Below are positions 1,127 to 58,930 of a stretch of 64,000 nt of DNA, one piece after another. The position numbers and the translations under genes were made by a program. Source of the stretch: Heptranchias perlo. Its lineage: Eukaryota. How positions within the stretch are numbered: position 1 is the first letter of the stretch; each line of letters starts with the position of its first letter. Location of the stretch: NCBI RefSeq assembly GCF_035084215.1, contig NC_090334.1, forward strand, positions 41,354,001-41,418,000. The letters are read 5' to 3'. Under the pieces are notes generated by a model. It did not search any database. It saw only the letters and a program-made list of their open reading frames with translations, and had not been told where the DNA came from.

Positions 1127-1607
1127 ATGGACCTGTCGCGAGCGCCGCCGAGTGACGGCCGCGTGCTGTCGGTGCTGGACATGCACACGGGCGGCGAGCC
1201 GCTGCGCATCGTCACCGGCGGCTTCCCTCACATCCCAGGGGACGACGTGCTCAGCAAACGGCGCTACGTGCGGGACAAGCTGGACGGGCTGCGGCGGCTG
1301 CTGCTGTTCGAGCCCCGCGGTCACTACGACATGTACGGGGCGCTGCTGGTGGCCTCGGAGCAGCCCGACGCGCACCTCGGCGTCCTCTTCATGCACAACC
1401 AGGGCTACAGCACCATGTGCGGGCACGCAGTCCTGGCGCTCGGCCGCTTCGCCCTGGACTACGGTCTAATCGCCGAGCCCAAGTCTCCCGAAACTCAGGT
1501 CAACATCCACTGCCCCTGCGGCCTGGTCCGGGCTTACGTGCAGTACGAGAAGGGCAAGAGCGGCCGGGTCCGCTTCCACAGCGTCCCCGCCTTCGTCTTC
1601 GCTGCAG
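1127..1607 (+). CDS. L3HYPDH: L3HYPDH orthologue (proline racemase family), coding exon 1
   Basis: MDLSRAP...DMHTGGEPLRIV...EPRGHYDMYGA...YSTMCGHA...HSVPAF. Catalytic MCGH motif (TGC at 1418-1420). Donor GCAG|gtattg at 1608, phase 1. Confidence 0.95.
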
Positions 1608-3427: not shown

Positions 3428-3597
3428 ATGTTACAGTTGATGTACCAGGACATGGGAAGATGGTGGTGGATATTGCATATGGAGGTGCTTTTTATGCATT
3501 CGTGAGTGCAGCTTGTTTTGGTTTGGATGTTTGTTCCTCCAGGACTCGGGACCTTGTAGATGCAGCAGTAGCTGTAACTAATGCTGTGAAAACACAG
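3428..3597 (+). CDS. L3HYPDH: L3HYPDH coding exon 2
   Basis: tttcag|AT GTT ACA...: (D)VTVDVPGHGKMVVDIAYGGAFYAFV...AVKTQ|gtaggt. 170 nt, phase-compatible with exons 1 and 3. Confidence 0.95.
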
Positions 3598-4549
3598 GTA
3601 GGTAAAGAAGCCAAATACTGTTCTTATTGAGCAGTGTTCATCCAACAAGCAAGTATTTCACCTTGCCACAATTTAATCACAAATTAGTGATTGGGGAAAT
3701 TAGTTTTTTTTCCCTGAGGCTGGGAAAATGTGCAGACTTTAGCTGTGAATACCATCTAGAAGTGCAGCCAGGTTTTCCTTCTCTTTGCGAATGGATCCCT
3801 CCTTCCTCAACTAATAAACTGAGATTGGTTCTATGTAGTGAATGGAACACAATACTGTTTGTGTGCAGCCTGCAACCATTTTTACCTTGCAGACCTAACT
3901 TTCCTAGATGAAGGGCAAAATAAAATGCTTTGAAAGGAAAATAGGGGCAAAAATGCAAATACCTGACATGCTGTTCTATGTCCAGCCTATCCAGATCATA
4001 CAGCTGTGGAACCTCAAAATAAGGATCAGAGTTTTTATGCACTTTTTGCTACAGGTGGAATGCAGTAACTCAAATTGCTGCACATTGTGGCCTGGTTCAG
4101 AATTGCCATAACTTGTCAAGCAGACAAATGGACCTTGCAAGTCTGAGACATTAACCCACAATTTTGTGACTAGGAGTCACTTGGTTACTGAATTTTCAAG
4201 AGAATATTTTAAAGCATTAAAGACTGTACTTACAAATTTTGAAGTAAGTTACCACTATTTGCTTTGGAGCTGAACTTTCAGCACCTTCCAGTTTCTGAAG
4301 GAATAAAAGATTAAGTTATTAACCACATGTAAAAACAAAGTTACAGTATTAATTTTGACCACCTTCATTCAGCAATCTCCATACACTGCTAGAGTTGAGC
4401 AACACTGAATTCAACACTGTTAAAACTATATGGGGGTTGTCATTTTTGACATTGTCATCTAGCATTGGTATGTGCCAATGAACCATGTGGCACCCACGCT
4501 ATCATTCTAATGAACATTCACGATACCCTTTTCGTATAATACGTTACCC

Positions 4550-4915
4550 AAAACTGTGCACAATACTCCAAGTATGGCCCACCCAATGTCGTGCACAAAT
4601 TCAACACCACTTTCTTTTGTAACTGATTCCTATATATATATAGAACTCAGAATCCCATTTGCCTTTTCACAATCTTTTCTACTTGCATTCTCATCTTTAA
4701 AGATCTATGTATCGGCTTTCATATCTGTTCCTCCACTGTTAAAAATCTTAACAATTTAGTGTATAATTTCTTACCGTTTTTCCCAAAATATACCATCACA
4801 TTTCTCTGCGTTGAACTACATGTGTTATCTATCTGCCTACTCTGCTTGTGTTCCCTTGTATTTTCTCTTCAGTTGCCATGCCCTCCTAATTTGGTATCAT
4901 CTGCAACATCTCTGA
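4550..4915 (-). mobile_element. Highly decayed CR1 RT fragment
   Basis: Reverse complement resembles the CR1 ADDTKLG and LEYCAQF regions (ttggtatcatctgcaa; gcacaatactccaagt). Confidence 0.55.
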
Positions 4916-5781
4916 CCTACCTTTGCATCTTGCAGCAATTTTAGTTCTCCATAACACTCCTATATCAGGATAGGATACCTCTTGATGTCTCAATTTATGA
5001 AGGCCACCTGGAAGTTAAATTCTGACAGGTCACCACCCATACCAAATTGGGATCTGAGTTTGGACCTTCATAAGTTAATGAACTCTCCTTTCAAACCACA
5101 TATAATTGAAAGCGTCTGTCATTTCAGACTGTACTTTTGGTGGCTCTGGGTTCAGCTTGCTAATTAGTGAGATCTAGGCACTGGTTGCCAGTCACCCCTA
5201 TTTGTACAAGCAGTTTCAGAACACCACTGTGGTTTCTTGCTAAAAGTAGCTTCCCATTTTCATCTGTCACTTTCAATTGGATTTACAATGTCACTACCAC
5301 TGTGAATGGCCAGAGAACTCTAGCATTTTATATGAACCGTATCAAGTCGCCAGATGCAACAATTTTGTTATATGTGGTCTTGAAATCCAAGGAAGACCTT
5401 TTTCCAAACAAAGGTTTGCACATAGATGCTGGAGACCTTGCTAATATTTATTTAGTTGGAAATCCAATGGCCCAGTGAAAGATCATTCTGTTTCACACCT
5501 GCCTGAAAGATATGTCTATCAATAGCATGTGTAAAACCATCAAATGGAATAACCTCAACATGAATCAAGCATTACTGTTGACAGATAATATCTTTGGTAG
5601 ATCAGTCCTGCTGGGAAAGATCTCTCCTTCCCCTAAGAACCTTCCTCCTTAGTCTCCAGAGGTGTGTGGAGGATTTTGAATGAAGATAGCTTACCTATCT
5701 TATATAGTTTTCTTCATTCTTAAAAATCATACAGGGACATCTATACTACTTTGTTTAGTTTACTTGAGGCTACTTGCCAAA

Positions 5782-6289
5782 TTTTTTTTTTTTTTTTATT
5801 CGTTCACGGGATGTGGGCGTCGCTGGCAAGGCCGGCATTTATTGCCCATCCCTAATTGCCCTCGAAGGTGGTGGTGAGCCGCCTTCTTGAACCGCTGCAG
5901 TCCGTGTGGTGACGGTTCTCCCACAGTGCTGTTAGGAAGGGAGTTCCAGGATTTTGACCCAGCGACAATGAAGGAACGGCGATATATTTCCAAGTCGGGA
6001 TGGTGTGTGACTTGGAGGGGAACGTGCAGGTGGTGTTGTTCCCATGCGCCTGCTGCCCTTGTCCTTCTAGGTGGTAGAGGTCGCGGGTTTGGGAGGTGCT
6101 GTCGAAGAAGCCTTGGCGAGTTGCTGCAGTGCATCCTGTGGATGGTGCACACTGCAGCCACAGTGCGCCGGTGGTGAAGGGAGTGAATGTTTAGGGTGGT
6201 GGATGGGGTGCCAATCAAGCGGGCTGCTTTATCTTGGATGGTGTCGAGCTTCTTGAGTGTTGTTGGAGCTGCACTCATCCAGGCAAGTG
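5782..6289 (-). mobile_element. Young 5'-truncated LINE 3' end with poly(A) tail, in L3HYPDH intron 2
   Basis: Poly-T at 5782-5797. The ORF MSAAPTTLKKLDTIQDKAARLIG... is nearly identical to the copy at 57600-58111. Confidence 0.85.
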
Positions 6290-6696: not shown

Positions 6697-6819
6697 GTTA
6701 AACTCCACCACCCTGCCAGTGAAGATCTTGCCTTCCTCTATGGCACTATATTAATTGATGGGAAAGATGCATTTTCTGAAGAACCAACAGCAAACGTCTG
6801 CGTTTTTGCAGATGCTCAG
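6697..6819 (+). CDS. L3HYPDH: L3HYPDH coding exon 3
   Basis: taacag|GTT AAA CTC...: VKLHHPASEDLAFLYGTILIDGKDAFSEEPTANVCVFADAQ|gtagga. 123 nt. Absent from the ORF track and read manually. Confidence 0.95.
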
Positions 6820-7408: not shown

Positions 7409-7546
7409 GTCGACAGAAGTCCCTGTGGCTCAGGTGTGACAGCTCGCATTGCACTGCAGTACCACAAAGGATTGATTCTACTGAATCAGACCAGGACATT
7501 TCAGAGTGGTCCAACAGGCTCGCTCTTCACAGGAAAAGCCGTAGAG
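7409..7546 (+). CDS. L3HYPDH: L3HYPDH coding exon 4 (second catalytic motif DRSPCGSG)
   Basis: gagtag|GTC GAC AGA AGT CCC TGT GGC TCA GGT...: VDRSPCGSGVTARIALQYHKGLILLNQTRTFQSGPTGSLFTGKAVE|gtgatt. 138 nt. Confidence 0.95.
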
Positions 7547-9766: not shown

Positions 9767-9892
9767 GAAACAAAATGTGGTGATTTCAAAGCTGTTATAG
9801 TAGAAGTATCAGGACAAGCACATTACACAGGAACTGCAAATTTTTATGTGGAAGATGATGACAATCTGAAAGATGGGTTTCTTCTCCGATAA
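9767..9892 (+). CDS. L3HYPDH: L3HYPDH coding exon 5 (terminal)
   Basis: tttcag|ETKCGDFKAVIVEVSGQAHYTGTANFYVEDDDNLKDGFLLR*. The spliced CDS is 481+170+123+138+126=1038 nt, i.e. 345 aa. Confidence 0.95.
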   Translation, partial: ETKCGDFKAVIVEVSGQAHYTGTANFYVEDDDNLKDGFLLR

Positions 9893-11243: not shown

Positions 11244-13445
11244 AGGGCAATTATAAAGGAATGAGGGTGGAATTTGGCTAAAGTGGACTGGGTAAATAGA
11301 TTAGATGATATGATGGTGGATAAGCAGTTGCAAACATTTAAAAAGATATTTTATGACTCGCAACAAAAATATATCCCTGTTAAGAGGAAAGACTCCACAA
11401 AAAGGGTGAACCAACCATGGCTAACTAAGGAAGTAAAGGATGGTATCAGGTTAAAAGTAAAAGCATACAACATGGAAAAGATTACTGGTAAGCCTGAAGA
11501 TTGGGAAAACTTTTAAAACTAGCAAAGGATGACTAAAAGAATAATAAAGACGGAGAAAATAAATTGAGTGTAAACTAGCAAGGAGTATAAAAACTGACTG
11601 ACAGTAAATGTTTCTACAAGTATATAAAAAGGAAGAGGATGGCTAAAGTAAACATTGGTCCCTTAGAGGATGAGACTGGGGAAATAATAATGGAAAACAA
11701 GGAAATGGCAGAGGAATTGAACAAATATTTTGTATCTGTCTTCACAGTAGAAGACACTAATAATATACCAATAATAGTGGAAAATCAAGGGGCAGAGGGG
11801 AGGGAGGAACTAAAAACAATCACTATCACTAGAGAAAAAGTACTAGGTAAACTAACAGGTCTAAAGGCAGACAAGTCTCCTGGCCCTGATGGCTTGCATC
11901 CAAGGGTCTTAAAGGAAGTGGCTAGAGATAGTGGATGCATTGGTTGTAATCTTCCAGAATGCACTAGATGCTGGAAAGGTCCCAGCGGATTGGAAAACCG
12001 CAAACATAACACCCCTATTCAAGAAGGGAGTGAGACAGAAAGCAGGTAACAATAGACCAGTTAGCCTAATGTCTGTCATTGGGAAAATGCTAGAATCCAT
12101 TATTAAGGAAGTAGTAGCAGGATATTTGGAGACTCATAATACAATCAAGGAGAGTCAACATGGTTTTATGAGGGGAAATCATGTCTGACAAATTTATTAA
12201 AGTTCTTTGAGGAAGTAACGGGCAGGGTGAATAAAGGGGAACCAATGGATGCAGTATATTTGGAGTTCCAAAAGGCATTCAGTAAGGTGCCACGTGAAAG
12301 ATTACTGCACAAGATAAGAGCTCATGGTGTTGGGGGTAATATACTGGCATGGATAGAGGATTGGCTAACAAACAGAAAACAAAGAGTCGGGATTAAAAGG
12401 GTCATTTTCAAAATGGCAATCTGTAACTAGTGGGGTGCCGCAGGGCTCAGTGCTGGGGCCTCAACTATTTACAATATTTTTAATGACTTGGATGAAGGAA
12501 CAGAGTGTCTTGTGGCCAAATTTGCTAATGATACAAAGATAGGTGGAAAAGCAAGTTGCGATGAGGACACAAAGTGTCTGCAAAGAGTTATTAACAGGTT
12601 AAGTGAATGGGCAAAAATTTGGCAGATGGAGTATAATGTGAAAAAATGTGAAGTCATCCACTTTGGGAGGAAAAATAAAAAAGCAAAATATTATTTGAAT
12701 GGAGAAATACTACAAAATGCTGCGGTACAGAGTGATCTAGGTGTCCTCGTACATGAAACACAAAAAGTCAACATACAGGTGCAGCAGGTAATCTGGAAGG
12801 CAAACGGAAGAGTGTCCTTTGTTTCTAGAGGGATGGAGTATAAAAGCAGGGAAGTCATGCTACAACTGTACAGGATGCTGGTGAGACCACACCTGGAGTA
12901 CTGCATACAGTTCTGGTGCCCTTATTTAAGGAAGGACATACTTGCATTGGAGGCAGTTCAAAGAAGGTTCACTAGGTTGATTTCAGGTATGGAAGGGTTG
13001 TCTTATGAGGAAAGATTCAACAGGTTGGGTCTATACTCATTGGAGTTTAGAAGAACGAGAGGAGACCTTATTGAAACATACACGATTCTGAGGGGACTCG
13101 ATAGGGTAGATGCTGAGAGGATGTTACCCCTCATGGGGGAATCTAAAACTAGGGAGCAGTCTTAGAATAAGGGGTCGCCCGTTTAAGATGGAAATGAGGA
13201 GGAATTTCTTCTCCCAGAGGGTCGTGAATCTTTGGAATTCTTTACCCCAAAAAGCTGTGGAGGCTGAGTCATTGAATACATTCAAGGCTGAGTTAGACAA
13301 ATTTTTGATCAGCAAGGGAGTCAAAGGATATGGGGAAAAGGCGGGAAAGGAGTTGAGGTAAAAATCAGATCAGCCATGATCTCATTGAATGGCGGAGCAG
13401 GCCCAAGAGGCCGAATGGCCTACTCCTGCTCCTATCTCTTATGGT
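11244..13445 (+). mobile_element. 5'-truncated CR1 LINE, ORF2 (RT) with frameshifts
   Basis: KSPGPDGLHPRVLKE, RPVSL, SQHGF, FQKAF, GVPQGSVLGP, FANDTK, RPHLEYC, RGDLIE. 3' end GGCCGAATGGCCTACTCCTGCTCCTAT. Confidence 0.92.
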
Positions 13446-19414: not shown

Positions 19415-19511
19415 TTTGCCATTGGAGCCGCTTCCACCGACCTTGTGTGTCTCGCTGCTGAGAAAAGTCCAGTGATGAATCCTCCATTTCGCGGATGTGT
19501 TGTTCAGCCCG

Positions 19512-20807
19512 ATGGATCTTCCTACCAGGACTCCTCTGTTGGACAATCTCACGGCGACCAACACCTCGGGCACGGCCGTCGGCAACCAAAGCGGGGCCGC
19601 TCAGCGGGACGGAGCCGGGGACCAGCCCGACCCCAACTCCCTGCTCCCCGGCATGGCCGTGGCTTCCCAGGCTCTCGTCCTCCTGCTCATCTTCCTGCTC
19701 TCCAGTCTGGGCAACTCGGCCGTGATGGTGGTGATCATCAAACACCGGCAGCTGAGGACGGTGACCAACGCCTTCATCATGTCCCTGTCCCTGTCCGACT
19801 TGCTCACCGCCCTGCTCTGTGTGCCCTTCTCCTTCATCATGCTCTTCAGCCGGGACGGGGTCTGGATTTTCGGTGACCGGTTCTGCGTCGCCAACGGCTT
19901 CTTCAACTCATGTTTCGGGATCATCTCCACCCTCACCATGACTCTCATCTCCTTCGATCGCTACTATGCCATCGTCAGGCAGCCCCAGGAGAAGATGGGC
20001 GGACGCCGGGCCATCCAGCTGTTGGCCGCCGCCTGGTTGACCGCGGTCCTCTTCTCTTTCCCCTGGCACCTCCTCTCGCAAGCCCAGGGTCAACTGGTTG
20101 TCCACAAGAAGGGGTTCTATCACTGCATGTACATCTTCCACTCGGGCAGCTCCCCCATGGGCACCAGTTACAGCATGGCCCTGATCATCATCTGCTACCT
20201 CCTGCCCTTCTCCCTGATGTGTTTCTGTCACTACAACATCTGTAAGGCGGTGAGGTTGTCGGAGATCCGAGTCCGCCCGGTCACCACTTATGCCCATCTG
20301 CTGCGCTTCTACAGCGAGATGAGGACGGCCACCACCGTGCTGATCATGATCGTCTTCATCATCTGCTGCTGGGGTCCCTACTGTGTCATGGGGATCATCA
20401 CGGCCGCTGGTGACTTGCACTTCACCCCCATCATGGACACTGTGGCCATCTGGCTGGCTTGGGCCAACGGGGCTCTCAATCCGCTCATCTACGCCATCAG
20501 GAACCCCAACATCTCCATGCTCTTCGGCAGGAACAGGGAAGATGGCTACAGGACTAGAAACATAGCGGCGTACTTGTCCAGCCAGAGCCAGAGCCAGGAG
20601 GCCAGGAGTCGGGCGGACAGGATAAGGGACCGCTATGTCAACCGGCATGGGACCGGCAGCAGGATGTCCTCCTCCAGCCCCGCCCATGGAGACGTCGCCA
20701 TGTGGGCCTGTAAAAACCCCGCTGTGCTCTTCTGCAGAGATGGACAAGCCGATACTGTGTCTGAGCCCGCTGTACCCAAATCAGAGACTGCAGACACCAG
20801 CCTTTAA
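19512..20807 (+). CDS. GPR135: Orphan class A GPCR GPR135, intronless CDS, 431 aa
   Basis: 7TM protein with GN (TM1), LSLSD (TM2), DRY, CWGP and NPLIY motifs plus the GPR135-type segment [26 protein letters not shown]. The first in-frame ATG is 19512 (in-frame TGA at 19476). Syntenic between L3HYPDH and DAAM1. Confidence 0.93.
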
Positions 20808-38979: not shown

Positions 38980-40015
38980 AGTGTATCTTTACGTACCACT
39001 TCTCTCCCAAAACTCGGACCCCTTCAGTCAGGCTTCTGCTCTGCTCACGGCAATAAACACAGTGCTGGTGAAAGTCACAAATGACACCCTCTGTTGCCAT
39101 GTCCAGAGTGTGGTATCCCTCTTTGTCCTCCTCAGCCTCTCCATTATGTTCAATATGGTCAATGACACCATTCTCCTCCGTTGTTTTGCCTGTGTGCGCC
39201 TGCCCTTGCGTGGTCCCGCTCCCGCCTGCCCTTGCGTGGTCCCGCTCCCGCCTGCCCTTGCGTGGTCCCGCTCCCGCCTGCCCTTGCGTGGTCCCGCTCC
39301 CGCCTGCCCTTGCGTGGTCCCGCTCCCGCCTGCCCTTGCGTGGTCCCGCTCCCGCCTGCCCTTGCGTGGTCCCGCTCCCGCCTGCCCTTGCGTGGTCCCG
39401 CTCCCGCCTGCCCTTGCGTGGTCCCGCTCCCGCCTGCCCTTGCGTGGTCCCGCTCCCGCCTGCCCTTGCGTGGTCCCGCTCCCGCCTGCCCTTGCGTGGT
39501 CCCGCTCCCGCCTGCCCTTGCGTGGTCCCGCTCCCGCCTGCCCTTGCGTGGTCCCGCTCCCGCCTGCCCTTGCGTGGTCCCGCTCCCGCCTGCCCTTGCG
39601 TGGTCCCGCTCCCGCCTGCCCTTGCGTGGTCCCGCTCCCGCCTGCCCTTGCGTGGTCCCGCTCCCGCCTGCCCTTGCGTGGTCCCGCTCCCGCCTGCCCT
39701 TGCGTGGTCCCGCTCCCGCCTGCCCTTGCGTGGTCCCGCTCCCGCCTGCCCTTGCGTGGTCCCGCTCCCGCCTGCCCTTGCGTGGTCCCGCTCCCGCCTG
39801 CCCTTGCGTGGTCCCGCTCCCGCCTGCCCTTGCGTGGTCCCGCTCCCGCCTGTCCAAATGCAGCCAACACATGTCCGGCAATGACTTCTCTTCCCACGTC
39901 TGTACTGATCCCTCTGGAATCCCCCTAAGATCTACCTTCCCCACTCCCCCTCAACATTGACATACTGTTCCTTTGTGACATCATCTGCAAGCATAGGCTC
40001 GGCTTCCACACGTAC
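38980..40015 (+). mobile_element. Decayed L2 LINE RT remnant hosting the minisatellite
   Basis: DPFSQ..TVLVKVTNDTL..SLFVLLSLSIMFNMVNDTILL..ALAWSRSRLSKCSQ..GIPLRS corresponds to the L2 RT consensus ETALVKVTND/LLDLSAAFDTVDH/ALAWFxSYL/GVPQGS. Confidence 0.75.
39197..39852 (+). repeat. 26-bp minisatellite (CGCCTGCCCTTGCGTGGTCCCGCTCC) x25 plus 6 bp
   Basis: Copies appear identical. The 26-aa periodicity of the six-frame ORFs equals 3 units. 20/26 GC, no A on the + strand. Confidence 0.97.
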
Positions 40016-42334: not shown

Positions 42335-43905
42335 ATTAAAGAGTGACAAATCCTCAGGACCAGATGGTTTCCATCCCAGGGTTTTAAAAGGAAGTAGATG
42401 AGAACATTGCAGAAGCCCTAACTATAATCTTCCAAAGTTCTCTCCATTCAGGAACCAATATTTCAGATCAGAAAATTGCAGGTCACCCTGCTACTTAAGA
42501 AAGGTGAGAGACAGAAACCAGGGTATTATAGACCAGTTAGTCTAACATCTGTGGTTAGGAAATTCCTAGAGTCTATGATTAAGGATAGTAATGAACACCT
42601 TGAAAATTTTCAGCTGATCAGAGAGCCAGCATGGATTTGTAAAGGGTAGGTCATGCCTGACAAAACTGATTGAATTTTTTGAAGAGGTGACTAAAGTAGT
42701 GGACAGGGGAATGTCTATGGATGTTGTTTATATGGACTTCCAGACGGCATTCGATAAAGTCCCTCATAAGGGACCGTTAGCTAAAGTTGAAACTCATGGA
42801 ATTGTCGGCAAATTATTGACCTGGTTAGGAAATTGGCTGAGCAGCAGGAGAGAGAGAGTAGGGATAATGGGCAGGTACTCAAATTGGCAGGATGTGACTA
42901 GTGGTGTCCCACAGGGATCTGTGTTGGGGCCTCAACTATTCACTGTATTTATTAACAACTTAGGTGACGGGAAAGAGAGCCACATATCCAAGTTTGCCGA
43001 TGACACAAAGATAGGCAGCATTGTAAGCAGTGTAGATGAAAGCATAAAATTACACAGCGATATTAACAGATTAAAAGAATGGGCAAAACTGTGGCAAATG
43101 GATTTCCATGTAGACAAGTGTGAGGTCAACCACTTTGGACCGACAAAGGACCTACATTTCTAAATGGTGAAAAGCTCAAAATAGTGGAAGTCCAAGAGAC
43201 TTAGGGGTCCATGTATGTAGATCATTAAAATATCAAGGATAGGTACAGAAAATAATCAAAAAGGCTAATGGAATGCCGGCCTTTATATCTAAAAGACTAG
43301 AATACAAGGAGGTAGAAGTTATGCTACAGCTATACAAAGCCCTGTTAGACCACACCTGGAGTATTATGTTCCGTTCTGGACGCCGCACTTTAGGAAAGAT
43401 ATATTGGCCTTGGAGGGAGTGCAGCATAGATTTACTATAATGATATTTGGACTCCAAGGGATAAATTGCAAGGAGAGATTACACAAACTAGCGTTGAATT
43501 CCCTGGAATTTAGAGGATTAAGGGGTGTTTTGACCGAAGTTTTCAAGATATGAAAGGGGAACAGATAGAGTAGAGAGAAACTATTTCCACTAGCTGGAGA
43601 GTCTAGGACTAGGGGACATAGCCTAAAAATTAGGCATTTTTAAAAATAAATTGCAGGGGCAATGTTGGGAAATACTTCTACATGCAAAAGGTGGTCAAAG
43701 TTTGGAACTCTCTTCTGCAAATGGCAGTTGATACTGGCTCAATTGTTAATTTTAAATCTGAGATTGATAGATTTTTGTTAACCAAAGGTATTAAAGGATA
43801 AGGGGCTAAGGCAGGTATATGGAGTTAGGTCACAGATCAGCCATGATCTCATTGAATGGCAGAACAGGCTTGAGGGACTAAATGGCCTACTCCTGTTCCT
43901 ATGTA
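42335..43905 (+). mobile_element. CR1 LINE, RT to 3' end
   Basis: DVVYMDFQTAFDKVPH..GVPQGSVLGPQLF..FADDTKIG. 3' end AATGGCCTACTCCTGTTCCTATGT. Confidence 0.9.
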
Positions 43906-53989: not shown

Positions 53990-56900
53990 AAGTGGTCAGA
54001 GAGCGCAGACCAGGGAAAACAAGAGGAGCAGTGGCGAGATCTCCATTCACTAAGAATGGAGAGAGTGGCATCACAGTAAACAGAGAGGAGGAGCTCAGAG
54101 AGAGCCAGAATAAAAGGGTAGATTAATCGGGGTAAGTAAACAGTAAGTAAATTAATAGAGTAACTAAAGAGAGAGAGTTCAGAAAAAAACATTTCTAAAC
54201 ATAATGGACAGGTAGCCGAGACCCGTTGCCTGCAATTCCTGCACCATGTGAGAGCTTCAGGACCCTACATGTGTCCTAGAGGGCCAAATATGCAGGAAAT
54301 GCCTCCAGTTGCTCGAGCTCAAGCTGAGGGTTTCTGAGCTTGAGGGGCAGCTGGAGTCACTGCAGAGCATAAGAGAAGCTGAAGGTTTCCTGAGTCGTAC
54401 ATTCCAGGAGGTGGTCACCTCACAGCTACAGAGTGTTCAGGATAGCAAGTGGGTGGCCACCTGAAAAGGGTAGAAAGAAGCAGGCAGTGCAGGAATCTTC
54501 TGGGTGTGTGCCACTCTCAAACCGGTATTCAGCATTCAATACAAGCGGGGGTGACGGCACCTCAAAGCAGTGCAGTCCTGAGCATGGCACCATGGGACAA
54601 AGGATGGCACAGGGGAGCACAATGACATGTAGAAATGCAGTAGTGAAAGAGGATTCGATAGTCAGGAGGTCAGACAGGCGGTTCTGTGACCACCGACGTG
54701 AGTCCCGCATCGTGTGTTGCCTTCCTGGTGCTAGGGTAAAGGACATCACAGAGAAGGTGCAGAATATTCTGCAGGGGGGTGGGGGGGAAGAAGGGGAACA
54801 GCCAGAAGTCGTGGTCCATGTGGGTACCAACGAAATAGGAAAGAAAAGGGATGAGAGGTCCTGCAGTCAGAATTTCAGGAGCTAGGGAGGAAGTTAAAAA
54901 GCAGGACCTCAAAAGGTAGTAAGGTGTAAACGCATGAAGCATGGTAAGTAAGGTTGGTGAGCTGCAGGCGCAAATAGCCATATGGGAATCTGATGTAGTG
55001 GCAATAACAGAGACCTGGCTTAAAAAAGCGCAGGATTGGGTACTAAATATTCCAAGACATGTAGGAAAGATAGGGAAGGGAAAAAAGCAGGGGGTGGATG
55101 GCTGTATTATTTGAGAATATTGCAACGCTGGAGAGAAAGGATGTCCTTGAGGAGTCAAAGACAGAATCTATTTGGTTAGAGTTATGAAACAATAGAGGTG
55201 TCATTACACTACTGGGTGTATTCTATAGGCCACCAACTAGTGGAAAGGATATAGAGGAGCAAATTTGCAGGGAAATTAGAGGTGCAAGAACTATAAAGTA
55301 GTGATAATGGGGGACTTCAACTATCCTAATATAGACTGGGATAGTAATAGTGTAAAGGGCAAAGAAAGGAAGGAATTTCTGAATTGTGTTCAGGACAACT
55401 TTCTTTCTCAGTATGTTTCCAGCCCAATGAGGAAGGAGGCATCGCTGGATCTAGTTCAGGGGAATGAAGTGGGTCAAGTGGAGCAAATGTCAGTGCAGGA
55501 CCATTTAGGGAACAATGATCATAGTATTATAAGGTTTAGTTTAATTATGGAAAAAGACAGGAGCAATCTAGATTAAAAATACTTAATTGGAGGAGGGCCA
55601 ATTTCAGTGAGTTGAGAATGGATCTGGCCCGAGTAAATTGGAATCAAAGATTGGCAGGCAAAACTGTCATCGAACAATGGACGGCCTTTAAATAGGAGAT
55701 AGTTTGGGTACTGTCTAGGTACATTCCCACAGAGGGGAAAGGTAGGGCAACCAAAGCCAGAGCGCCCTGGATGACGAAAGAGGTGGAAAATAAGATGATG
55801 CAGAAAAAGGGGGTGTATGACAGATATCAGGTTGATAATACAAGTGAGAATCAGGCTGAATATAGAAAGTGAGAAGTGAAAAAGGAAATAAGAGGGGCAA
55901 AGAGAGTATGAGAATAGACTGGCAACTAATCCAAACATCTTCTATAGGCATATAAATAGTGAACGGGTAGTAAGAGGAGGGGTGCGGCCGATTAGGGTCC
56001 AAAAAGGAGATCTACGCATGGAGGCAGAGGGCATGCTGTGGTACTAAACTTTGCATCAGTCTTCATCAAGGAATAAGGTGCTGCCAAAGTCACATAAAAG
56101 GAGGTAGTTGAGAAACTGGATGGGTTAAAAATTGATAAAGAGGAGGTACTAGAAAGGCTGGCTGTACTTAAAGTAGATAAGTCATCCGGTCCAGATGGGA
56201 TGCATACTAGGTTGCTGAGGAAAGTAAAGGTGAAAATTGTGGAGATACTGGCCATAATCTTCCAATCATCCTTAGAGGTGGTGTTGCCAGAGGACTAGAG
56301 AATTGCAAATGTTCAAAAAAAGGGTGTAAAGATAAACGGTGGTGGGGACGCTTTTAGAAACAATAATCTGAGACAAAATTAAGAGTCACTTGGACAAATG
56401 TGAATTAATAAAGGAAAGCCAGCACGGATTTGTTAAAGGCAAATCATGTTTAACAAACTTGATTGAGTTTTTTTGATGAGGTGATAGAGAGGGTTGATGA
56501 GGGCATTGCGGTTGATGTTGTGTAAAAGGACTTTCAAAAGGCGTTTGATAAAGTGCCACATAATAGGCTTGTCAGCAAAATTAAAGCCCATGGAATAAAA
56601 GGGGCTGTGGCAGCATGGATACAAAATTGATTAAGTGACTGGAAACAGAGTAGTGGTGAACGATTGTTTTTCAGACTGGAGGAAGATATACAGTGGTGTT
56701 CTCCAGGTGTCGGTACTAGGACCACTGCTTTTTTTGATATATATTCATGACTTGGACTTGGGTGTACAGGGCACAATTTCAAAATTTGCACATGACACAA
56801 AACTTGGAAGTGTTGTAAACAGTAAGGAGGATAGTAATAGACTTCAAGAGGCATAGACGGGCTGGTAGAACAAGGGTGTAACATTTGCAATTCTCCAGTC

Positions 56901-58930
56901 CTCTGGACAAAAGAGCTGAATTCCAGAAGTGAGGTCAAAGTGACTGCCCTTGACATTAAGGCAGCATTTGACCGAGTGTGGCACCAAGGAGCCCTAGTAA
57001 AACTGAAGTCAATGGGAATCAGGGGGAAAACTCTCCAGTGGCTGGAGTCATACCTAGCACAAAGGAAGATGGTAGTGGTTGTTGGAGGCCAGTCATCTCA
57101 GCCCCAGGACATTGCTGCAGGAGTTCCTCAGGGCAGTGTCCGAGGCCCAACCATCTTCACCTGGTTCATCAATGACCTTCCCTCCATCATAAGGTCAGAA
57201 ATGGGGACGTTCACTGATGATTGCACAGTGTTCAGTTCCATTCGCAACCCCTCAAATAATGAAGCAGTTCAAGCCCGCATGCAGCAAGACCTGGACAACA
57301 TCCAGGCTTGGGCTCATAAGTGGCAAGTAACATTCGTGCCAGACAACAACCATCTCCAACAAGAAAGAGTCTAACTACCTCCCCTTGACATTCAACGGCA
57401 TTACCTTCACCAAATCCCCCACCATCAACATCCTAGGGGTCACCATTGACCAGAAACTTAACTGGACCAGCCATATAAATACTGTGGCTACAAGAGCAGG
57501 TCAGAGGTTGGGTATTCTGTGGCGAGTGACTCACCTCCTGACTCCCCAAAGCCCTTCCACCATCTATAAAGGCACACGTCAGGAGTGTGATGGAATACTC
57601 TCCACTTGCCTGGATGAGTGCAGCTCCAACAACACTCAAGAAGCTCGACACTATCCAGGACAAAGCAGCCCGCGTGATTGGCACACCATCCACCACCCTA
57701 AACATTCACTCCCATCACCACCGGCGCACAGTGGCTGCAGTGTGCACCATCCACAGGATGCACTGCAGCAACTTGACAAGGCTTCTTCGACAGCACCTCC
57801 CAAACCCGCGACCTCTACCATCTAGAAGGACAAGAGCAGCAGGCACGTGGGAACAACACCACCTGCACGTTCCCCTCCAAGTCACACACCATCCCGACTT
57901 GGAAATATATCTGCGTTCCTTCATCGTCGCTGGGTCAAAATCTTGGAACTCCCTTCCTAACAGCACTGTGGGAGAACCTTCACCGCACGGACTGCAGTGG
58001 TTCAAGAAGGCAGCTCACTACCACCACCATCTCAAGGGCAATTAGGGATGGGCAATAAATGCCGGCCTCACCAGCGCGTCCACATCCCATGAACGAATAA
58101 AAAATAAAAAAGATGGAATTTAATGCAGAGAAGTGCGAAGTGATACATTTTGGCAGGAAGAACGAGGAGAGGCAATATAAACGAAATGGTACAATTCTAA
58201 AGGGGGTGCAGGAACAGATGGACCTCGGGGTATATGTGCACAAATCTTTAAATGTGACAGGACTAGTTGAGAAAGCAGTTAAAAAAGCAAAAGGGATCCT
58301 GGGCTTTATAAATAGAGGCATAGAATACAAAAGCAAGGAAGTTATGTTGAACCTTTATAAAACACTGGTTTGGCCACAGCTGGAGTATTGTGTCCAATTC
58401 TGGGCACTGCACTTTAGGAAGGATGTGAAGGCCTTAGAGAGGGTGCAGAAAAGATTTTACCAGAATAGTTCCAGGGACGAGGGACTTCAGCTACGTGGAT
58501 AGACCGGAGAAGCTGGGATTGTTCTCCTTAGGGCAGAGAAGGCGAAGAGGAGATTTGATAGCAGTGTTCAAAATCATGAAGGTTTTAGATAAAGTAAATA
58601 AAGAGAAACTGTTAACACTGGCGGAAGGGTCGAGAACCAGAGGACACAGATTTAAGGCAATTGGCAAAAGAACCAAAGGCAACATGAGGAAAATCTTTTT
58701 TGCGCAGTGAGCAGTTATGATCTGGAATGCACTACCTGAAAGGGTGGTGGAAGCAGATTCAATCATGGCTTTCAAAAAGGAATTGGATAAATACTTGAAG
58801 AGAAAAAATTTGAAGGGCTACAGGGAACGAGTGGGGGAATGGGCCTAACTGGATTGCTCTTTCAAAGAGCCGGCACTGGCTCGATGGGCCGAATGGCCTC
58901 CTCTGTACCGTAACCATTCTACGATTCTGT
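53990..58930 (+). mobile_element. Near-full-length decayed CR1 LINE (ORF1 Zn-finger/leucine zipper/SGNH esterase, ORF2 APE plus RT), antisense in the last DAAM1 intron
   Basis: From 54204: CNSC..CRKC..LELKLRVSELEGQL. Esterase DSIVR..CLPGARV..VHVGTN. APE motifs ITETW, YRPP, GDFNYP. RT motifs and the CR1 3' end. Internal deletion near 54920; the 5' bound is approximate. Confidence 0.88.
56904..58111 (+). mobile_element. Nested 5'-truncated poly(A)-tailed LINE of a different family inside the CR1
   Basis: TALDIKAAFDRVWHQG..GVPQGSV.GP..FTDD..LGVTID. Poly(A) tail 58096-58111, after which the host CR1 resumes at GATGGAATTTAATGCAGAG. Confidence 0.88.

Follow-up and report, generated by a model that had tools for sequence, protein, structure and literature searches.

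A two-cysteine catalytic dyad in chondrichthyan L3HYPDH, a putative trans-3-hydroxy-L-proline 2-epimerase

Enzymes of the proline racemase family are classified by their catalytic dyad, and the animal members have been taken as Cys/Thr dehydratases. Stereoinversion is brought about by a pair of cysteines facing each other across the alpha-carbon, whereas the Cys/Thr enzymes use a single base and eliminate the 3-hydroxyl (PMC4113996, PMC4364671). Heptranchias perlo, the sharpnose sevengill shark, has an L3HYPDH gene that raises the question of which reaction is catalysed by an animal orthologue of the dehydratase that carries two cysteines. The fold, the family, both chemistries and the effect of the single substitution were already known. 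A literature search, mainly of open-access papers, found none joining proline racemase or L3HYPDH to sharks, and none dealing with Cys variants in sharks or molluscs or with D-proline in sharks. The window analysed here is a 64-kb stretch of the H. perlo genome that holds the whole coding part of this gene.

Gene model and second catalytic codon

Translation of window positions 7409-7435 gave VDRSPCGSG, in which the codon TGT at 7424-7426 encodes Cys264. Five exons with AG/GT borders were found to join in frame into a 345-aa L3HYPDH with no internal stop. The features are as follows.

1127..1607, + strand: L3HYPDH exon 1, coding part, residues 1-160, with HTGGEP, Asp68, Tyr70, MCGH and Cys129
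1418-1420, + strand: TGC codon of the first catalytic cysteine, Cys98, in MCGH
3428..3597, + strand: L3HYPDH exon 2, residues 161-217
6697..6819, + strand: L3HYPDH exon 3, residues 218-258, with pocket residues Tyr232, Thr234, Cys252 and Phe254
7409..7546, + strand: L3HYPDH exon 4, residues 259-304, starting with the DRSPCGSG motif
7424..7426, + strand: TGT codon of the second catalytic position, Cys264, equivalent to human Thr273 and to Cys300 of Trypanosoma cruzi proline racemase
9767..9892, + strand: L3HYPDH exon 5, coding part, with residues 305-345 followed by the TAA stop

The codon at 7424-7426, Cys98 in MCGH and the intact gene were thus all found as the first-pass annotation had described them. 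The 345-aa model is identical throughout to RefSeq XP_067847620.1 of H. perlo, which is annotated as trans-L-3-hydroxyproline dehydratase, the very label that homology-based annotation had been expected to give. Exon 1 is covered by a CpG island and aligns to the human structure 7QPO with an E value of 4e-66. In the alignment with 7QPO, Cys98 corresponds to Cys104 and Cys264 to Thr273, in agreement with the human counterparts named previously. It had also been asked whether transcripts might use a different exon carrying Thr. Searches of the 64-kb window using tblastn and blastn found no further copy of exon 4, no Thr-bearing alternative exon and no L3HYPDH paralogue, and the RefSeq X2 isoform, which differs in the last exon only, retains Cys264.

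Elsewhere in the window, positions 936-939 on the - strand hold an ATG and one further base, directly before a strong donor site, head to head with L3HYPDH and in the same CpG island; this may be the first exon of JKAMP. A single-exon rhodopsin-family receptor frame (Pfam 7tm_1) at 19479-20804 (+ strand) resembles GPR135, which adjoins L3HYPDH in human. A GC-rich tandem repeat, strongly skewed between the strands, occupies about 39000-39950, and broken reverse-transcriptase-like frames at 11591-13358, 42618-43160 and 56841-58499 appear by eye to be LINE retroelement remnants.

Distribution and history of the substitution

A total of 120 protein matches were obtained, of which 14 were set aside and 106 classified by motif. 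Cys/Cys was found in 11 proteins, every one chondrichthyan, and Cys/Thr in 91, every one from a bony vertebrate; three had no second motif, and one cavefish protein had no first motif and Ala at the second site. No Thr-bearing chondrichthyan L3HYPDH was present among the 106 classified matches. The cavefish protein (P0077, Sinocyclocheilus anshuiensis) is possibly a decaying duplicate. For the alignment, ten rows were left out (four motif-defective proteins and six short or long isoforms), eight bony-vertebrate proteins were added, and extra chondrichthyan species were taken from the members of sequence clusters. It comprised one protein per chondrichthyan species (n=22, covering sharks, batoids and, for the chimaeras, Callorhinchus) together with 93 proteins of bony vertebrates. 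The bony-vertebrate sampling spans ray-finned fishes, coelacanth, lungfish and amphibians, human being the sole amniote considered.

Position 264 was Cys in 22/22 chondrichthyan species and Thr in 93/93 bony-vertebrate proteins, and human likewise has Thr (Thr273). At the 90% level, the only columns fixed differently between both groups were 264 (C/T) and 17 (L/V). Such a comparison over sharks, rays, chimaera and bony vertebrates had been proposed in the first-pass annotation, where a single sequencing error was already thought unlikely; because all 22 chondrichthyan species carry Cys at 264, a sequencing error or private variant is now excluded in practice. The Cys/Cys dyad, noted previously in a single species, is confirmed by the aligned proteins as a trait of all sampled chondrichthyans, and it occurs in molluscs as well. 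Identity between sharks and chimaera was 80-84% (3 pairs), against 78-80% for deep bony-vertebrate pairs (n=5), and as it is not below the latter, the sequences give no sign of relaxed constraint or decay in chondrichthyan L3HYPDH. The intact reading frame and high conservation rule out a decaying gene.

Among invertebrates, Thr was found at the second catalytic site in the hemichordate Ptychodera and the crinoid Antedon. Mollusc proteins were Cys/Cys in 19 of 20 cases (11 species), the one with Thr being from Haliotis, in a sample drawn with a Cys-bearing mollusc query by which Thr copies may be missed. The mollusc Cys arises by the same two-base codon change as that of the shark. Within Haliotis, the H. 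asinina protein has Cys and the H. cracherodii protein Thr (P0457, P0475; 87.5% identity). In five of the 20 mollusc proteins, Phe occupies the position of Tyr70 (P0449 and P0494 from scallops; P0485, P0499 and P0500 from Mercenaria), and in two of these five position 232 is Phe as well, matching proline racemases. They belong to sets of duplicated copies that share a chromosome or scaffold and are, by their residues, candidates for animal proline racemases proper. A few eukaryotic family members are described as carrying all racemase residues (PMC4417235), so that eukaryotic members with the Cys have precedent.

Dongia-like close matches of bacterial type, obtained with an alphaproteobacterial query, had Thr in 118/118. 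The best 80 of 601 prokaryotic loci, which are 43-64% identical to the shark protein and have Tyr at position 70, had Thr in 78/78 intact loci, and the other two were frameshifted with Thr downstream. A Cys/Cys copy was found at one of these 80 loci (L009, Longimicrobiales), where tandem copies at 3817-4881 and about 4998-6011, 94% identical in DNA, differ at the second catalytic codon, which is TGC in the Cys copy and ACC in the Thr copy. The pair is a recent duplicate and a further independent Thr/Cys case. A single neighbouring gene was scanned, a sodium:solute symporter gene upstream, and it gives no clue to a pathway. More distant Cys/Cys members, of uncertain placement, also exist; plasmid and atlas searches added nothing.

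A maximum-likelihood tree of 69 rows was built with column 264 dropped. Chondrichthyans, gnathostomes and molluscs were each supported at 100/99, and the shark protein was sister to bony-vertebrate L3HYPDH, again at 100/99. This placement within the dehydratase subfamily identifies the shark gene as the vertebrate L3HYPDH orthologue. Transfer from a bacterial racemase is ruled out, since introns are present and the gene is sister to bony-vertebrate L3HYPDH. A single ancient Cys paralogue common to sharks and molluscs is disfavoured by the gnathostome clade (100/99), while a tree with sharks forced together with molluscs is rejected only marginally by the AU test (p 0.047).

Both a retained ancestral state and a reversion had been offered as the origin of the shark Cys. 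The nearest bacteria, the hemichordate and the crinoid have Thr, and site 264 takes three state changes on the tree, against four with a Cys ancestor of these animals, which favours a Thr-to-Cys reversion on the chondrichthyan stem over retention by one parsimony step only, in a sample of jawed vertebrates, a hemichordate, a crinoid, molluscs and prokaryotes. From its distribution, the change is fixed since before the shark-chimaera split.

Pocket, fold and predicted reaction

Both proline racemase motifs given in PMC1964878, MCGH and DRSPCGXGXXAXXA, are present in the shark protein. Compared with the dehydratase dyad, it has the Cys at the first site (Cys98, MCGH) and Cys264 instead of Thr at the second. 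Apart from position 264, the pocket is dehydratase-like: Tyr70, Tyr232, Asp68, Arg261, Met97, Ser266 and Cys129 are kept, the human equivalents being Tyr76, Tyr241, Asp74, Arg270, Met103, Ser275 and Cys137, and the shark residues pair as Asp68/Arg261, Tyr70/Tyr232 and Met97/Ser266. The pocket, closure and disulphide residues of the human enzyme are described in PMC9309405.

The position known as R1 is reported to be Phe in proline racemases and Ser or Val in 4-hydroxyproline epimerases, and Tyr or His at R1 is linked there to absent racemase activity (PMC1964878). Tyr70, present in 22/22 chondrichthyans, aligns to T. cruzi Phe102 (R1), and the shark protein thus has neither the Phe of proline racemases nor the Ser/Val of 4-hydroxyproline 2-epimerases. 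The R2 position of T. cruzi, Cys270, is aligned to Thr234 in a gapped stretch of the HMMER alignment, and the His that 4-hydroxyproline 2-epimerases have at R2 is absent from residues 228-237. Phe254 matches Phe290 of proline racemase. By these residues, the protein is excluded from the dehydratase definition by its dyad, and from the definitions of proline racemase and 4-hydroxyproline epimerase by its pocket.

The NCBIfam models are built for prokaryotes and are a weak test; the top model was the dehydratase, with all models below cut-off, alike for shark and bony fish, and the proline racemase model scored 295.5 bits against a cut-off of 556. The predicted shark structure (mean pLDDT 85) had its best matches in human 7QPO (TM 0.85), the top PDB match of the protein, and the Thermococcus dehydratase 6R76 (TM 0.92). 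At the level of sequence and predicted fold, a two-base dyad is therefore combined with a 3-hydroxyproline-binding pocket.

Human L3HYPDH, the orthologue, is 69% identical in the structural alignment and differs in having Thr273 in place of Cys264. The proline racemases of T. cruzi (1W61) and Acetoanaerobium (7PB3) share with the shark protein the fold, the Cys/Cys dyad, both motifs and the Phe290 equivalent, but belong to another subfamily at ~33-36% identity and have Phe102 where the shark has Tyr70. Two-base stereoinversion, predicted for the shark, is a feature of the 4-hydroxyproline 2-epimerase PA1268 (2AZP) and of PA1255; the former is only ~31% identical and carries Ser/Val at R1 together with His at R2, both of which the shark lacks, and the latter is of Ser/Cys type. 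The Cys/Thr dehydratases of bacteria and archaea (LhpH; Thermococcus 6R76) belong to the same subfamily and have Tyr at position 70, but differ in the Thr of their intact loci, with L009 having an added Cys duplicate.

The first-pass annotation cited a report that mutating this Thr to Cys in dehydratases restores 3-hydroxyproline epimerase activity, and PMC3958920, citing Visser 2012, states for human L3HYPDH that the mutant has trans-3-hydroxy-L-proline epimerase activity. The dyad of the engineered Thr273Cys enzyme is identical to that of the shark and its pocket is the same; in the shark, the dyad is natural and fixed across Chondrichthyes, and the activity is predicted. In its catalytic residues, the shark protein is a natural copy of this human mutant, and from the match of a dehydratase pocket altered only by the Cys we infer support for a 3-hydroxyproline epimerase.

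Under the proposed mechanism, Thr would have been replaced by Cys at the second catalytic position on the chondrichthyan stem, and the Cys would have been fixed since. Cys98 would take the alpha-proton from trans-3-hydroxy-L-proline in the unchanged dehydratase-type pocket, and Cys264, on the opposite face, would return a proton to give cis-3-hydroxy-D-proline, with the reverse reaction also occurring. Part of the carbanion would probably still shed the 3-hydroxyl. Such residual dehydration is likely because the Ser/Cys relative PA1255 both dehydrates and 2-epimerises trans-3-hydroxy-L-proline (PMC5144071). The enzyme would be able to accept each isomer, and irreversible dehydration could drain both. 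We regard it as fairly probable that the shark protein works like a trans-3-hydroxy-L-proline 2-epimerase, most likely with residual dehydratase activity.

Alternative readings and biological meaning

By analogy with characterised family members, the Cys/Cys dyad would not by itself settle the reaction. Certain Bacillus family members are of Cys/Cys type. These Bacillus members are reported to dehydrate (PMC4113996), three natural Cys/Cys proteins are described as inactive both as proline racemases and as 4-hydroxyproline epimerases (PMC1964878), and archaeal Cys/Cys enzymes accept proline and both hydroxyprolines (PMC4364671). Cys264 might thus be merely tolerated, or support a side reaction only, with irreversible water loss dominating the net flux. 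The Bacillus enzymes and the dual activity of PA1255 speak for this, as do the dehydratase character of every other pocket residue checked and the sole copy in the window; with no Thr-bearing chondrichthyan protein among the 106 matches, sharks may lack another route. The site is, however, not freely exchangeable, since Thr is invariant in the 93 bony-vertebrate proteins, the 118 bacterial-type matches and the 78 intact loci among the best 80 of 601 prokaryotic ones, and at least three lineages show the change, for which two base substitutions are required. We consider dominant dehydration rather unlikely, and a class-wide catalytic switch in L3HYPDH is real and probably functional.

An enzyme of broad range, acting as a proline racemase or as a proline/hydroxyproline epimerase and yielding free D-proline, would agree with the two racemase motifs, with Phe254 and with the substrate range of the archaeal enzymes, and Phe70 in five of 20 mollusc proteins indicates that the family can shift toward it. 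Against it stand Tyr70 in all 22 chondrichthyans, a residue associated with inactivity in PMC1964878, the model score of 295 against 556 and the clustering of the shark protein with dehydratases. Proline racemase activity of the shark protein is accordingly the less likely half of the earlier proposal of a native 3-hydroxyproline epimerase or proline racemase, being opposed by Tyr70 (PMC1964878), while the epimerase half is upheld by the pocket and the human mutant (PMC3958920); as a full account we hold the broad racemase to be improbable. Slightly more improbable still is another role for Cys264, such as action on some other imino acid, control of the pocket by redox state or a function outside catalysis. 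A disulphide between Cys104 and Cys137 of the human enzyme is redox-sensitive (PMC9309405), and both partners are kept in the shark (Cys98, Cys129), so that a third pocket Cys could alter redox behaviour; human L3HYPDH also has an antiviral activity, which may or may not depend on catalysis (PMC10875296). The change nevertheless falls exactly on the second catalytic position and restores a two-base motif, with the rest of the pocket unchanged.

If the 3-hydroxyproline epimerase reading is true, an epimerase that is native to vertebrates and inverts a free imino acid with two cysteines is labelled in databases as a dehydratase across a whole vertebrate class. Among racemases of free amino acids, the one established in vertebrates is the PLP-dependent serine racemase. 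Against the epimerase reading, the D-isomer is not known to serve any purpose in sharks. Collagen 3-hydroxyproline, moreover, is rare, at 2-10 per 1000 residues (PMC8779045). Under the epimerase reading, a metabolite should be measurable in shark tissues, and the locus offers a clean natural experiment of one residue, repeated in molluscs and in one bacterium. More speculatively, chondrichthyans and, independently, many molluscs may have returned a dehydratase of collagen breakdown to a stereo-inverting enzyme that works without a cofactor and actively makes or recycles cis-3-hydroxy-D-proline, and possibly D-proline, which would amount to an undescribed D-imino acid pathway or signal in animals.
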